Part shown: piece after piece, positions 15,001-24,000 of the stretch | Numbering within the stretch: the first letter of the stretch is position 1 | Layout of the letters: each line of letters opens with the position of its first letter | Assembly (NCBI GenBank): GCA_963666985.2 | Contig: CAXXIA010000002.1 | Span: forward strand, 2,496,001-2,560,000 | Direction: 5' to 3' | DNA length: 64,000 nt | DNA from: Spirochaetia bacterium | GTDB lineage: Bacteria > Spirochaetota > Spirochaetia > DSM-2461 | Program-made: the position numbers

Positions 15001-18000
15001 GTCCGAAAAGAAGCCGCGCCGGTCGCTCCTTAATTGACGGGGATTTATTTCCCCATAAGGTTGCTAAAGGGGATTTATTTCCCCTTTATTCATCAAACAT
15101 AAATCCGGGGAATTCAAATGACAATAAAAAATCTCGTTCCCGGCGAATGATGCAGCCATTGGTTTAAATATATAATGCGAATAACTTTATGAATCCAAAA
15201 TTAAGAAAAAACATGTGTCCGATTCAGAATCTGTATATTCCTTTGAACTGTTGTGGCACGAGATTTGCATTTATATGAGAAATCAAGGAGGACGTTTTAT
15301 GAAACGACTTGTATCGGTTCTTTGTTCCGTTGTTCTTTTGTTGGCTCTCGGAATGCCTTTATCGGCTTCCGGTCAGGATGAGAAAGGTGACGGCCAGAAG
15401 ACTTTGGCTGTCTGCCTTCCCGGAAGTGTTGAGTTCTTTTCCGTTCAAAAAAAAGGAATGGATAAAGCCGCCGCTCAATACGGATTGAAACTGATATATT
15501 CCGATGCCGAATGGGATGCCGCCAAACAGTTAAGTCAGGTTGAGAACTTCGTAGCACGAGGCGTTGATGCCGTTATGTTGTGTTCCGCCGATAATCAGGC
15601 ACTTATGCCGGCTGTAAAACTGTGTAATGATTCCGGGATTCCCCTTTTTACATTTACGAATACCTTAGGTGCCGATCCTAACGGACAGGTTGACGGTACG
15701 GTAACGTTCATCGGTATAAATGAAATTTCTCTCGGGCATATGATGGGTAAAATGGCCGAATCCGTATTGGGAAATGAGGCGGCGAATATTGTCTTGATTG
15801 AAGGAAATCCGGGCACGGCTCCGCAAAGAATGAGAACCGAAGGTTTTATGGAAATCGTAGGTAAACATGACAAATGGAATGTCGTTTATCAGCAAGCCAT
15901 TCCCGGCTGGACTAAGGAAGGCGCACTCGCCGCCGTTGAGGCGGCTCTTCAATCCGGAGAAACCATTAATCTGATCAGCTGCCAATGGTATAACGGTGCC
16001 ACAGCCGCGGCACAGGCGATTGAGGAATCCGGACGAACCGAAAAAATCTATGTAACCGGTTTGGAATTCTCCAAAGAACTGATTCCCATGATTCAGGACG
16101 GCAAAGTTGATATGACGTCGAATTATTCCATTGAAGATTCGGGATTCACGGTTATTGAAACCGCCTATAAATACTTTCAGGGTGAAAAAATCCCTTCATT
16201 TATTCCTTTGGAGGCATACATTGTCGATAAAGGGAATGTCGACGGTATAACACCGGAACTTTAGAGATTGCTTTATGAACTGGGGAACTCAGCTCTTTTT
16301 AAGCAAAGTTGAAAAAGAAACATATCCCGTAAGGAAGCTGGAATGGAAGCTCTCAAGGATTTTGGGAAAATCCAATATTGGGAAACTGATATTCTGGAAT
16401 ACTCGGGAAGATGAATATACCGATTCCGTTTTAAGACTTTGCCGGGAATTTGATGTTGAGTGTTGGCTGTGGTTCCCCGTTCTGGCGGATTCCGTCGTCC
16501 CGTCTGAGAATGCCCGTCCTGCGGTGAATCATAGGGGTGAGTATGGAATTCGTCCGCCCGGATCCATTAATAAGCCGGAAAAGGGAGAAGAGAATTTTAC
16601 TTTCTTTTGTCCTTCGGATGAGTCGTTTGAAGAACTGACAATAAAGACTCTTTCGGATTTAGTGGATCGATACGAATATACGGGAGTCTTCCTGGATCGT
16701 ATTCGTTATCCCTCTTTCGCAAACGGTCTGCCGCTGCAATATTCTTGTGTCTGCCCCGCGTGCTGCCGGAAGATGGGAATTGATTCGGAGGCGCTTTATT
16801 CCGAATTGGATTTCATAAAAGGGAAGGATTTCCTCAATCTGTTCCGTATGGGTGCGGAGTGTGAAAAAAGTTCGAACCGATTTCCTGAAGTGAAACGATT
16901 TTTTCGGCACCGGATGGGGCTGATTACCGAGAAAGTGAGGAGATTGAGGGAACCTGTAAAAGCCGTAGGAATGGGGCTTGCGCTTGATCTTTTTACACCG
17001 GCTCTGGCATTTTCGGTCGGCCAGGATTATTCGGCATTAAGCGGGATTGCCGATTGGATAAAGCCGATGACTTACGGCTTGGCCTGGGGACCCGCGGGAA
17101 TCCCGTTGGAACTGGACTGTCTTTATCGGGGTTTGACGCAGAGCTTTCCCGAATTACACAAAGAAGAAGTCATGGCGGCGATTGAGAAACTGATGAATTA
17201 TAAAATCACGCCGTATTGGGAAGGAAGATCGGATACGGGTTTCCCGACTTCCCTGGTTTATAACGAATGGAACACAGCTAGGCAATTCTCCGATAAATGT
17301 CTCTTTTTTCCCGGAATAGAAATGGTTCATAGCGAACTGTTTCGAACGAAGGTTCCGGAATATCGTGTGAAAGAGGCTATCGAACTCTTTGGAAACAGAA
17401 CGGATATTATCGCCTGCTGGAATTGCCTTGATATACCTGAATCTTATTTTGCTTTATTGGATAAGAGCTGATCTATGCCTCAAATACTGCTGTCTCTGGA
17501 CGGAATTAACAAAAGTTTTTCGAATGTTTCTGTTTTGCGGAATATTGATTGGGATGTTCATTATGGGAAGGTTCACGCCCTCTTGGGGGAAAACGGAGCC
17601 GGGAAGTCGACTTTAATTAAGATTATTTCCGGCGTCTATACCGCAAGTTCCGGAACGGTTTCCCTCGAAGGTCGGCAATTGGATTTCACATCTCCTCAAG
17701 ATGCGGTCAAAGCCGGAATCAATGTGATTTATCAGGAAACGAGTCTGATTCCTACATTAAGTGTTCTGGAAAATGTTTTTCTTGGAATTGAACCTAAAAA
17801 ACATAACGTCATCGATTCGGTCGCAATGAGAAAAAAATATGCCGAGGTAAACGCACAGATTGGAATTGATATAAACCCCGAGCAAAAGATTTCGCTTCTC
17901 GGTATCGCCGAGAAAAAAATCGTTGAGATTATGAAGGCTCTTGCAAGAGAAAGCCGGTTGATCATTATGGATGAACCGACAGATTCCCTGTCGGGGAAAG

Positions 18001-21000: not shown

Positions 21001-24000
21001 TTTTTCATCCTTGGCCCGGGAATATTAGGGAATTAAAAAACTGTATTCAGCGCGCGGTGATTTTCTGTGAGAATACCCTGATTTCCGCTGGAGATCTTCC
21101 CGAACAATATAAGAGGGTTGGAAAACCGGGCTGGACGGACGGATACGAAAAAGCGATTGACAATATTAATAGAGAGTTGATTGAAGAGGCTTTAAGAAAA
21201 AGCGGCGGGAAGAAAGCTCTTGCCGCTCAATTGCTGAAAATTGACAGGAAGACTCTCTATAACAAAATAAAAAAGTTAAACATTCAGGGATTTGAGTGAA
21301 CAGCCGGAGATTGCTTCAAGTCAAAGGCGTCTCCTATTCGTACGGGATAAAACAGGCCCTTTTTGGAGTTGGTTTTGATCTGCTTCCGGGCGAAATCCAT
21401 GCCTTGGTAGGCGATCATCGAGCGGGAAAATCCACTTTAATCCGGATTATTTGCGGAGCGCTTCGATGCCGCAAAGGGGAAATTATCCTTCCAGAGGGCA
21501 AATTCGCCGGGCTGTCTCCACGGAAAGCACGCCAACTGGGAATTGGTGCGGTGTTCCAGGAGGAGATGCTTGTTCCTTCATTAAGTACAATTGATAACGT
21601 TTTCTCCGGCCGTTTCGCGGTCTATCCCGGCGGAATTATCCGATGGCGTCGGCATATAGATGAATTTACTCGTTTTTGCCGAAAGTTGGATTTGGATTTT
21701 GATTTTACGAAACCCGTTGGTCAATTGGACAAAGTTAATCAGCATCTTGTTGAGTTTTTAAGGGCGATTTATTTCGATCCTTCCATACTCATTCTGGATG
21801 AAATATCCACTCGATTTACTCCGAGAGAAATGGATTTCATTTATCGGATTATTTTGGATATGAAGAAAAAGGGAAAAGGCATTATTTATATTTCCCATGA
21901 TATGGATGAAGTCATGGAATTTGCAGATAGGGTGACCATCCTGAGAAACGGCCGTTGCAGAAAGACTGAAAATATCCGCAATCTGGATAAAATGCAGCTT
22001 TATTATATGACCTATTCCCATGAGTTATCCAGAAAGGAACTTCGTCAGGCAAATTATGAACTCTACAATTTTAAACGATACAATGAAGCCATTATCCGGA
22101 ACATCCCGGTTGGTGTTGTTATTCTGGATAAGGACAATGGAATCTATCAGGTAAACCAAGCCGCTGAAAATTTGCTGTCTCCTTTTTCCGCCGATGAGCT
22201 TACTCTTGAAAAAATTTTCTCACGAATCGATAAAAGTTCGGTTCATAAAATTCTTTTGGCGATCCGGTCAAAGAAGCGAATGCATTTGGAAAATCTCCCC
22301 TTCGGCGATGAACATATTATTGATTTTTTTTGTTCTCCATTTACGGGTGACGCTGGGGAACTCAGCGGAACAATTTTACTGATTAACAATAAAACGGAAG
22401 AGCATAACGCAAAGGAATATATGAGAAGAACGGAACAGATTTCCTCTATTGCGGAACTGGCCGCCGGCGTGGCGCATGAAATTAATAACCCTCTTAATAT
22501 CATTTTGAATTACATGGATCTGATTACCCTTGAAACCCAGAAGGAATCATCCATTATTCGGCTGAAGAAGATTGAAAAGGAAATCCAGAGAATCTCGGAA
22601 ATTACCGGGAGTCTGCTTTCGTTCTCCAAAGTGAATAATGTGGAATTAGTCGAGTGTGATTTAAGGCAGGCACTTAAAGAAGCGGTACTTCTCCTGAAAT
22701 ATCGTATAGAGAAGAAAAAAGTTGTTTTCTCAATGGAGATTCCGGATGAACCTGTTGTTATCACAGGGAATTTAAATAAACTCGAGCAAGTATTTATCAA
22801 CTTGCTCATAAACAGTCTGGATGCTCTTGAAGCTGGCGGAAAGATTCGGGCCTGTATCCGTTATGAAAATAACAATGTATATGCGGCTGTGTCCGACAAT
22901 GGACCGGGGATTGAACATTCTATTGTCTCAAAAATTTTTGATCCCTTTTTCACTACTAAAATTGAAGATAAGAATTCCGGCCTCGGCTTAACCGTCTCGA
23001 TGCACATCATTATGGAACATAATGGGCTTCTTGAATGCCATAGTGAAGGCGGATGGACGACATTCGGAATTCGGCTTGCCGCCTGTTCTTCGAAAACGTA
23101 TCGAAAAGAAATTATCGATTGATGAGGTCTTGGGGTGTCGGTGAGTATTTCTCGAAATCCGGCGGTTTTTCTCCTCGGCCGTCGGCATAAACTGTCTCCG
23201 GTGAGATGTTTTCCCCGTAATTCTCTTTCCGAATAAAAGGGGCTGTCTCATAAGAGGCGGCCCTTTTTCATGTCTGGAAGAATTCCCTTCTGAATTCAAG
23301 GGTGGTAGAATTCTTCATGGACACTAAAAAGAAGGCTACATTCAAAGATTACGAAATCAGCCAACAGATGCTCCTGCCTCCAAGTCTCGATGAACTGCTT
23401 CCCGCAAACCATATATCCCGCACAATCAACAACTTCATCGACACGATGGATACCAGTGAGCTCTTCAACGCCTATCCGGGAGGCGGTGCCAGCAGCTACC
23501 ACCCGGTGATGATGCTGAAGGTTCTGGTGTTGGCCTACTCGAAACAGCTGTATTCCTGTCGTCAAATCGCAGACGCTCTTCGTGAGCAGATATGCTTCAT
23601 GTGGATCAGTGGTAATAACCGTCCTGATTTCCACACGATAAACAGATTTCGTAACGGTCCATTGAAGAAGAGCATCGAGAAAATCTTTGCCTCAATGGCC
23701 AACAGCCTCATCGAGAGCGGACATGTCCAGATGGAGAACTACTTTCTCGACGGCACAAAAATCGAATCAGCAGCTAACAAATACACATGGGTATGGGGCC
23801 GGGCGACAGACAAGTTCCAGAAGCGCCTGGCCGGCAATATGGATGAGCTTTTCGAATACATCGACCGCATCAATGAAGAAGAGGATGAGAAGTACGGCGA
23901 CCATGACCTTCCCCATGTGGATCCTCAAGGCAGGCCGATGTCGGAGATTCTCGAAGATGCGGTATCCAAGCTCAATGAAGAGCTGCGCAAGGATCGGGAG

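Follow-up and report, generated by a model that had tools for sequence, protein, structure and literature searches.

Organisation of the locus

The window, the whole 64,000-nt stretch of Spirochaetia DNA analysed here, contains a CUT2-type sugar ABC importer, a sigma54-dependent response regulator and a histidine kinase that carries an ABC nucleotide-binding domain (NBD). The genes and the sites preceding them are:

15039..15054, no strand: enhancer-like palindrome, copy 1, GGGGATTTATTTCCCC; likely regulator binding site (predicted)
15069..15084, no strand: enhancer-like palindrome, copy 2
15254..15269, + strand: perfect sigma54 -24/-12 promoter TGGCAC-N5-TTGCA, 30 bp upstream of the start of the sugar-binding protein (SBP) gene
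15299..16264, + strand: SBP of the CUT2 importer; ATG after AGGAGG; Peripla_BP_4, E 7e-50
16275..17471, + strand: 398-aa TIM-barrel glycoside-hydrolase-like protein; Atlas GHL10-like cluster (0.98)
17475..18965, + strand: canonical two-NBD CUT2 ATPase, GENGAGKS in NBD1 and LSGGNQQK in NBD2
18969..19928, + strand: BPD_transp_2 permease of the CUT2 importer; its EAA-type coupling loop is intact, and it is the proposed docking site of the kinase
19980..21299, + strand: NtrC/AtoC-type response regulator (REC, sigma54 AAA+ with GAFTGA, Fis HTH)
21296..23122, + strand: soluble ABC-NBD-PAS-histidine kinase, 608 aa; the GTG start overlaps the regulator stop

This gene order (SBP, 398-aa glycosidase-like protein, two-NBD ATPase, permease, sigma54 regulator, kinase) bears out the earlier note on this DNA, which had placed the kinase behind a sigma54 regulator and a complete sugar ABC importer. 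The SBP is RbsB-like, with an NCBIfam score under the equivalog cut-off. The product of 16275..17471 had no Pfam match above cut-off; the top fold match of its model (pLDDT 83) is the GH domain of PgaB (TM about 0.57), and the alignment places such a gene at the same position in eight related loci. It is best described as a putative glycosidase-like protein. A PDB sequence search with the permease found no relative.

The sigma54 promoter and its putative enhancer sites

The promoter was called with the sigma54 -24/-12 consensus. It is among the eight perfect matches in the 4.86-Mb genome, which also encodes an RpoN-box gene. The two palindromes form an exact 16-nt direct repeat with a spacing of 30 bp and fit the motif TGnGnAA-N4-TTnCnCA, which is present in 37 loci and has an information content of 12.5 vs 6.8-7.1 in shuffles; they are likely, as putative sites, to be bound by the sigma54 regulator. 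Among related loci, a sigma54 site was found on the importer strand in 32/41 tests and on the opposite strand in 0/41, while kinase-less importers had one in 2/61. Counts in a sigma70 and terminator scan were like those in shuffles. No RNA data set was among the sequencing runs listed. The perfect promoter and paired enhancer sites that precede the importer are a new finding and recur family-wide; at the sequence level, they mark the importer genes as the target of the regulator.

A family of soluble kinases with an ABC domain

The kinase is a single open frame of 608 aa (21296-23122, +), in which Pfam places ABC_tran at residues 24-170, PAS at 264-358 (E 2e-4, slightly below the Pfam cut-off), HisKA at 386-447 and HATPase_c at 493-594. 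The ABC_tran, HisKA and HATPase boundaries agree with those reported earlier, and the previous count, in which all 120 listed homologues carry PF00005, PF00512 and PF02518 at 96-100% coverage, was reproduced. Three features within the gene are relevant below:

21410..21433, + strand: Walker A motif GDHRAGKS, His-Arg replacing Asn-Gly of CUT2 ATPases
21989..22102, + strand: NBD-PAS linker, residues 232-269, of fixed length and helical in the model, the middle at low confidence
22475..22477, + strand: phospho-acceptor His394 (AHEINNPL), kept in 100% of 138 clusters

An assembly or annotation artefact as the source of the fusion is ruled out by 80 fusion ORFs in 79/207 loci. The lack of a membrane segment, formerly judged by eye, is upheld by a highest 19-residue Kyte-Doolittle mean of 1.26 and by a monomer model with soluble folds only; means above 1.9 occur in 1/120 homologues and 4/138 clusters. 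No membrane transporter domain was detected within the chain by Pfam, hydropathy or model. PDB searches by sequence and fold matched the ABC NBD and the PAS-kinase separately, and none of the matches listed spans both.

Residues H394, N506, D534, G536, G538, G562 and G564, which represent the H box and the N, G1, F and G2 boxes, are present in 100% of 138 clusters and, together with Pfam matches above cut-off, assign the protein by sequence motifs to the HisKA-type sensor histidine kinases. The spacing from PAS to the phospho-acceptor His is 37 residues in 124/138 clusters, and that between T224 and P271 is 48 residues in 114/138. At the sequence level, the catalytic boxes are intact, the helical links from NBD to PAS and DHp have fixed length and the kinase is coupled to a sigma54 activator.

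At a threshold of 50% identity, the family falls into 138 clusters or more. Its named records are mostly from spirochaetes, and members also occur in a KSB3 genome and one Gynuella MAG. True fusions were found in 6/400 other spirochaete genomes with a single query (three more matches were plain CUT2 ATPases) and in 13/400 with a broader profile; a phylum sample centred on Anaerolineae (251 genomes) gave none with the family profile, the top matches there covering the PAS-kinase part only. In a GTDB-wide scan, 16 of the 80 matches listed were fusions, the others being mostly plain CUT2 ATPases, and a metagenome pattern scan detects subfamily 1 only, its loci being a lower bound. The regulator lies directly upstream of the kinase in 48/50 loci by script, and the remaining two also show a regulator. 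These data support a conserved family of soluble kinases that combine a CUT2-type NBD as input domain with a sigma54 regulator and an importer, as claimed earlier; its distribution is patchy, and 'widespread' was an overstatement. A literature search for an NBD-fused kinase, which covered few subscription journals, likewise found no description, in line with the earlier note, and an entry in a domain-census supplementary table may exist.

Origin and nucleotide-binding motifs of the kinase NBD

In two quick trees, the NBDs of the kinases fall into a single clade (SH-aLRT 99 and 100) that joins CUT2 NBD1 (SH-aLRT 93 and 91). They are NBD1-type in sequence and ancestry, and go back to a single derivation from NBD1 of the CUT2 sugar ATPases. 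A recent duplication of the neighbouring ATPase is ruled out by identities of 33.2% to the own neighbour vs 34.1% to others; the neighbour is the best match in 0/30, and in the window the kinase NBD and NBD1 of the ATPase share 32% identity.

Across 59 kinase NBDs, K45, S/T46, Q88 and D168 are invariant (59/59). E169 is kept in 54/59, P170 in 0/59 and H201 in 42/59, the corresponding numbers for CUT2 NBD1 being 80, 79 and 80 of 80; catalytic Glu, following Pro and H-loop His are therefore not an invariant set in the kinases, although the window protein keeps E and H. In the P-loop, H41 and R42 are each found in 97% of the 59 kinase NBDs, at positions occupied by N and G in 100% of 80 CUT2 NBD1. 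Over 138 clusters these values are 70% for H and 18% for R, and the Walker A sequence GeHRAGKS, given earlier for the family, holds in one subfamily, while the larger subfamily has GEHGAGKS. The H-loop His, also described as conserved, is present in 119/120 closest matches, but only in 42/59 diverse NBDs and 61% of 138 clusters, and has been lost in whole clades. The degenerate signature is real and nothing special: the first Gly of LSGG is missing from all 59 kinase NBDs and also from 80/80 CUT2 NBD1, from which the degeneration was inherited. The kinase has one NBD only and lacks its own LSGG, leaving a CUT2-type active site incomplete. Because the signature was inherited in degenerate form and the H-loop is often lost, the domain looks, from its motifs, like one that binds nucleotide without ATP turnover.

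E169 and H201 are both kept in 41/59 kinase NBDs, window protein included, as might be expected if the NBD powered the permease as a second motor or were a gene-fusion leftover without sensing role. Both readings are very improbable in view of a signature GG in 0/138 clusters, the loss of the catalytic His in whole clades and the separate canonical ATPase that is normally present. Conservation of the NBD also matches that of the kinase core (47-51% vs 48-53%), and there are family-specific invariant residues and linkers of fixed length.

Relation of the kinase to its neighbouring importer

In 37/38 informative loci, the importer next to the regulator-kinase pair has permeases of the BPD_transp_2 type (35 CUT2, 2 Liv-type), against 116 BPD_transp_1 and 65 BPD_transp_2 permeases in the genome of the window; the sole exception genome carries the orthologous importer elsewhere (74%). 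Part of this bias could stem from linkage since a shared origin, and kin loci are not independent. The partner importers are mixed, including two-NBD, single-NBD and Liv-type systems, and a complete importer adjoins the kinase in nearly all loci.

This proximity, and a motif pattern in which NBD1-type domains require the NBD2 signature for a complete site, would suit a kinase NBD that pairs with the working ATPase, NBD2 lending the missing signature, and reads the transport cycle as a flux sensor, as BceS reads BceAB. Yet single-NBD and Liv-type importers, devoid of NBD2, are partners too, and D-loop and P-loop positions facing the partner NBD are rewired (loss of P170; K/R173 in 89% of kinase NBDs). 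In addition, a third NBD would find little space next to NBD1 and NBD2, which belong to a single chain, and the kinase NBD has no similarity bias to the neighbour ATPase. Pairing with the ATPase is accordingly unlikely.

In two loci, L116 and L022, an SBP and a permease adjoin the kinase without an ATPase, upstream of enhancer and sigma54 sites that control another importer. In relatives of this permease (60-65% identical), an ATPase gene separates the permease from the SBP; the L022 genome has no orthologue of it (best 42% vs 67%), and the coupling loops of the L116 and L022 permeases are intact. The two kinases are sisters, and the loci, one on a metagenome contig and the other in an incomplete MAG, represent one event; both permeases might also share the single-NBD ATPase encoded downstream. 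Together with the partner class, these loci provide indirect support for docking of the kinase NBD on the permease, which we consider the best reading and moderately probable. Coupling loops are very alike among permeases, and docking thus gives no account of specificity among 65 paralogues, which counts against it.

Positions that presumably face the permease were selected from MalK-MalFG contacts. At P75, Y87, P94, F103, G105 and R/K156, subfamily 1 is largely like CUT2 NBD1, and over 138 clusters these positions drift (P75 43%, P94 40%, G105 29%). Distances in the permease-facing columns follow permease distance slightly better (rho 0.30, a value reached by 8/300 random column sets) than those in other NBD columns (rho 0.17). 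In a mirror-tree analysis of 33/35 rows (two mis-paired L139 rows left out), correlation with the permease was weak and not NBD-specific (rho 0.22 for NBD, 0.26 for PAS). With PAS controlled, the NBD-permease term was not significant (r 0.10, p 0.15), while the PAS-permease partial correlation was r 0.18 (p 0.036).

A PAS correlation with the permease no weaker than that of the NBD is consistent with a free cytoplasmic sensor, whose altered P-loop would hold ATP/ADP or a phosphorylated metabolite, or whose PAS domain would bind the imported sugar, while the importer only admits the inducer. No NBD features are better conserved than the P-loop (97-99% across 138 clusters) and the Walker B Asp, and the exchange of Asn/Gly for His/Arg fits the same idea. 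A free sensor is nevertheless rather unlikely, as it leaves both the BPD_transp_2 bias and the ATPase-less SBP-permease pair beside the kinase unaccounted for. One genome contains six kinase paralogues, five of them adjoining different CUT2 importers, to which a shared energy signal would give no specificity. PAS is moreover the least conserved domain even next to near-identical permeases, and is just 19-30% identical in several pairs with permeases >70% identical.

A proposed model for sensing through the permease

On balance, it is fairly probable that the two-component system induces its own sugar importer by sensing through the importer's membrane subunit. The kinase dimer would present its two NBDs to the two coupling loops of the permease dimer, where they would take the position of the motor ATPase. 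Docking of the sugar-loaded binding protein from outside would then move the permease, and the two ATP-bound NBDs would close without ATP turnover. Linker and PAS would pass this closure to the DHp helix, His394 would be phosphorylated and the regulator activated, and the importer operon, here including regulator and kinase, would be transcribed. Permease and binding protein would act as receptor, not as pump. In other words, the kinase probably reads sugar via the membrane channel of the pump and then switches on the pump genes, and no published description of such an NBD-as-sensor kinase was found. The earlier proposal that it reads transport, i.e. flux, is less likely than reading of the loaded binding protein via the permease, since the NBD appears incapable of ATP turnover and the adjacent permease is motorless in two loci.

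Comparison with other transporter-linked kinases

The kinase NBD shares ancestry, degenerate signature, intact P-loop Lys, Q-loop and Walker B with the N-terminal NBD of CUT2 ATPases (RbsA, XylG, AraG, YtfR, LsrA), as well as most permease-facing residues in subfamily 1. Unlike these ATPases, the kinase has no NBD2, is fused to a PAS-kinase, has replaced the P-loop Asn by His, has lost the Pro after Walker B and can dispense with the H-loop; its scores against the CUT2 ATPase NCBIfam models are all far under the equivalog cut-offs. With AtoS/NtrB-type PAS-HisKA kinases it has in common the PAS-DHp-CA core and an NtrC-type sigma54 partner. It differs from AtoS by the absence of membrane segments and by the NBD as input, and the AtoS NCBIfam model matches residues 255-596 with 220 bits, below the equivalog cut-off of 646.

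CrbS/CbrA are reportedly transporter-fused SLC5-STAC kinases. In these, as in the transporter-fused kinase KsAmt5 (PMC8534201), a transporter part was made into a histidine kinase sensor. Those proteins fuse a membrane domain, whereas in the present kinase the fused part is the cytoplasmic motor domain alone, and the membrane part would have to be recruited in trans.

Like BceS of the BceAB-BceS systems (PMC10314905, PMC6978683, PMC7828314 and PMC8534201), the kinase has no extracellular sensor of its own and goes together with an ABC transporter under its genetic control. BceS is membrane-bound and touches BceB via transmembrane helices (PMC10314905). The kinase here is instead soluble and NBD-bearing, and works with a nutrient importer and an activator of the sigma54 type. 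No hydrophobic segment corresponding to the two transmembrane helices of Bce-type kinases was found in the kinase, and BceB-type permeases with a large extracellular domain are absent from the neighbouring genes, where the permeases are BPD_transp_2.

In PstSCAB-PhoU-PhoR/PhoB, the ABC importer is a cytoplasmic-side co-sensor for a kinase without a canonical periplasmic sensor (PMC6978683), and a co-sensor role of the importer is likewise proposed here. Pst differs in depending on an adaptor, PhoU, and on its ordinary ATPase, PstB, and its kinase is without NBD (PMC6978683). No PhoU-like gene was noted among the inspected ORFs of the locus (inspection, no profile search).

In AatJQMP-AauS/AauR of Pseudomonas syringae, kinase and regulator induce an adjoining ABC importer, whose binding protein is required for full signalling; according to PMC7386598, AauS has a periplasmic sensor, and ATPase and permeases are dispensable for its signalling. 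Adjacency alone is thus no proof of permease sensing.

Known transporter-coupled kinases use membrane contact or an adaptor, or carry a membrane domain; a kinase bearing the motor domain would, if the model is true, represent a different route from pump to receptor. Phosphorylation or a sigma54 reporter would then provide a direct readout of CUT2 permease conformation, in an assay simplified by the promoter and enhancer motif found here. Databases call many family members 'AtoS', and many records named 'AtoS' or 'ATP-binding protein' would be mislabelled, a new kinase input domain being named.

There is about an even chance that this reflects a general design, in which SBP and permease of an ABC importer form a transmembrane receptor with an NBD-bearing kinase, a non-hydrolysing NBD pair turns the permease switch into kinase activity, the permease is sensing-only in some lineages, and the arrangement arose or spread more than once. 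Other layouts of NBD-kinases exist, namely ABC+GAF+HisKA clusters, commonest in Actinomycetota, and ABC+HisKA proteins of about 515 aa, which suggest such a repeated origin or spread.

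The kinase and its locus

The earlier note's claim of an ABC nucleotide-binding domain (NBD) fused to a histidine kinase describes a real and conserved protein. The gene is a single 608-aa frame (window 21296–23122, plus strand), the domains lie where that note placed them, and all three occur at 96–100% coverage in 120 of 120 homologues among the matches listed. Pfam assigns the following kinase residues:

24–170, ABC_tran
264–358, PAS (weak match)
386–447, HisKA
493–594, HATPase_c

The best profile is that of CUT2 sugar ATPases for the NBD and AtoS for the C-terminal half, each scoring below the equivalog cut-offs. 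A hydropathy scan revealed no membrane segment (maximum 1.26), and a monomer model (mean pLDDT 83, pTM 0.44; linker 242–255 poorly resolved) predicts NBD, helical linker, PAS, DHp and CA folds. Genes for a sugar-binding protein (SBP), a TIM barrel resembling glycosidases, an ATPase with two NBDs, a BPD_transp_2 permease and a REC-AAA-HTH regulator precede the kinase on the same strand. The stop codon of the regulator overlaps the start of the kinase.

The TIM barrel (16275–17471) belongs to an unclassified family with an invariant DRIR.P and a C-x-C-x-x-C motif, also found between SBP and ATPase in the homologous loci L012, L021, L108, L114, L121, L132, L160 and L169; it may hint at the substrate of the operon. 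Directly after the kinase, a transposase gene has inserted (23302–24882, plus strand; DUF772, DDE_Tnp_1_6), which we take to be IS1182-like and which is bracketed by 16-nt inverted repeats (23239–23254 and 24946–24961). The following region (24986–29556), possibly a sugar-derivative lyase locus, encodes a PFL-like glycyl-radical enzyme of 825 aa on the minus strand and, divergently from it, a LacI regulator and a radical-SAM activase; another CUT2 importer follows from about 29815.

Size, range and origin of the family

Searching 50%-identity representatives with a profile returned at least 150 rows, and those listed all belong to this kinase family; 138 of the best 150 (query included, 570–660 aa) were analysed, the remainder being fragments or longer forms. 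The family splits into the group of the window, with His-Arg in Walker A, and a larger His-Gly group. Named records come mostly from Spirochaetota, plus bacterium UASB270 and one Gynuella MAG. Of 400 other genomes in the phylum of the window, 13 contain the kinase; the window's own genome has it once, and a phylum sample centred on Anaerolineae (251 genomes) contains none. The six paralogues of UASB270 (G404; L016, L227, L229, L230, L231) represent both subfamilies and each adjoin a different importer, which makes these systems a natural set for testing specificity.

In two quick trees without bootstrap, a single branch separates the kinase NBDs from the rest, with SH-aLRT values of 99 (41 rows) and 100 (38 rows, both groups); they adjoin NBD1 of the two-domain CUT2 ATPases (93 and 91, respectively). 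A copy of the neighbouring ATPase was rejected as the source, since identity is 33.2% to the neighbour vs 34.1% to others and the neighbour is the best match in 0 of 30 cases.

Other candidate ABC_tran–HisKA layouts are listed in Atlas, at a score of 0.84, as clusters of 852 and 826 aa (commonest in Actinomycetota, the first with GAF) and of 515 aa (commonest in Spirochaetota). An 851-aa variant (protein row P0129) combines ABC_tran with two HisKA stretches and a single HATPase. In L163, L014, L235, L237 and L245 the kinase gene contains a stop or is split between frames, through decay or sequencing error.

Properties of the NBD

Residues were counted in 59 kinase NBDs (<85% identity) and 80 CUT2 NBD1 domains. 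The P-loop Lys and Ser/Thr, the Q-loop Gln and the Walker B Asp are each present in 59/59 kinase NBDs, the A-loop aromatic residue in 55 and the catalytic Glu in 54, while the H-loop His is kept in 42 vs 80/80 in NBD1 and the Pro after Walker B in 0/59 vs 79/80. Conservation over 138 clusters is 97% for K45, 96% for D168, 89% for E169, 79% for Q88 and 61% for H201. The first signature Gly is missing from all 59 kinase NBDs and all 80 NBD1 but present in 81/81 NBD2, and by these counts the degenerate signature was inherited rather than newly acquired. New features are His41 instead of Asn, a rewired D-loop and conserved residues where the linker begins (T224, D231, L235, Y240). From general ABC chemistry we assume that a homodimer of such NBDs lacks a complete site; such a pair is therefore predicted to bind nucleotide with little turnover. 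That the NBD is a second motor or a leftover is very improbable. The spacing from T224 to P271 is 48 residues in 114/138 clusters and that from G358 to H394 is 37 residues in 124/138, fixed lengths as expected for movement relayed along helices.

Importers beside the kinase

Long flanks are available to either side of 21 kinases; 20 of these have a CUT2 permease within 8.5 kb and the other one a Liv-type importer. CUT2 importers also adjoin the other five UASB270 paralogues (5/5), and 13 further regions contain CUT2 in 10, a sigma54-led Liv-type importer in one and no importer in one, while the remaining region ends at a contig edge and was left out. Overall, BPD_transp_2 permeases occur in 37/38 loci, a count given without p-value because it includes kin and is not independent; the window's genome encodes 65 BPD_transp_2 vs 116 BPD_transp_1 genes. 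BPD_transp_2 is the permease class that the kinase NBD evolved to bind, and partners in these loci have been swapped among two-NBD, single-NBD and Liv types, never with other transporter classes. The exception, L242 (G143:C31), retains the regulator–kinase pair and a good sigma54 site, but has lost the importer there, and the pair is followed by an Ig-like/ice-binding lipoprotein; the orthologous importer is present on a different contig of that genome. CUT2 ATPase and permease form one frame of 831–868 aa, in both orders, in L052 (5843), L077 (8864) and L233 (4320).

Sigma54 promoter and enhancer-like sites

Using what we take to be the −24/−12 consensus, a perfect sigma54 site was found at window 15254–15269; the genome holds 8 such sites and encodes RpoN. 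For the wider family, 64 kinases (<90% NBD identity) gave 41 tests at 39 loci, with at most two mismatches per site. Sites lie on the importer strand in 20/25 divergent and 12/16 downstream arrangements, on the opposite strand in 0/41 tests, and at 2/61 control CUT2 importers without kinase, which are mostly from other phyla. An upstream palindrome, TGnGnAA-N4-TTnCnCA, has an information content of 12.5 vs 6.8–7.1 in five shuffles (37 loci), and the window contains two exact copies 30 bp apart. From the sigma54 sites and the palindrome, the importer operon is very probably switched on by the regulator. In the window this operon would run on into the regulator and kinase genes and create positive feedback. 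At the sequence level the regulatory wiring is well supported.

Proposed docking on the permease

The kinase dimer probably docks its NBDs on the permease and so senses loaded SBP; the docking step itself we infer. The two NBDs would occupy the permease dimer, replacing the motor, and sugar-loaded SBP would cause NBD closure without hydrolysis. Linker and PAS would relay closure to His394, and the regulator would then open the sigma54 promoter.

Distance correlations with the neighbouring permease are weak (NBD 0.22, PAS 0.26, kinase core 0.05; 33 loci, with two mis-paired rows excluded), and the NBD value given PAS (r 0.10, p 0.15) reveals no NBD specificity. A free cytoplasmic sensor that uses its NBD or PAS, which the PAS correlation would also allow, is unlikely next to a permease class kept in nearly every locus. 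Permease-facing NBD columns, presumed from MalK contacts, do slightly better and reach 0.30 vs 0.17 for the rest, with 8/300 random sets as high, and drift across the wider family (138 clusters). Coupling loops are near-identical between permeases and so do not account for the pairing of a kinase with its own permease.

A flux sensor, formed by the kinase NBD together with the working ATPase, is a rather improbable alternative.

Two loci, L116 and L022, have an SBP and a permease behind the regulator–kinase pair, without ATPase and without a sigma54 site ahead; enhancer and sigma54 sites (3 and 1 mismatches) lie 3' of these genes, ahead of a different single-NBD importer, of which the L022 contig holds the first codons only. 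In close relatives of this permease an ATPase gene separates it from the SBP gene, and the L022 genome contains no orthologue of that ATPase. The two permeases share 64% identity and both keep intact coupling loops, and the SBP–permease layout is therefore old. It is one event, seen in incomplete assemblies, and a shared ATPase could serve the permease.

Comparison with known systems

Published work describes ABC transporters as co-sensors in Bce modules and Pst-PhoU-PhoR (PMC6978683, PMC7828314, PMC8534201, PMC10314905), a membrane transporter domain fused to a kinase in KsAmt5 (PMC8534201), an SLC5 domain fused to a kinase in CrbS (PMC5715377), and AatJ-AauSR, where signalling did not need permeases or ATPase (PMC7386598). 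The NBD-kinase belongs to none of these families, but may by analogy operate in their manner, and would be a variant of transporter-coupled sensing. The consulted portions of PMC1183210 and PMC12316311 contain nothing on the family, and a literature search, with subscription journals and supplements outside its scope, found no description of an NBD-fused kinase. The family is apparently undescribed in print, and automatic annotations of its homologues already give both the ABC and the kinase domain.
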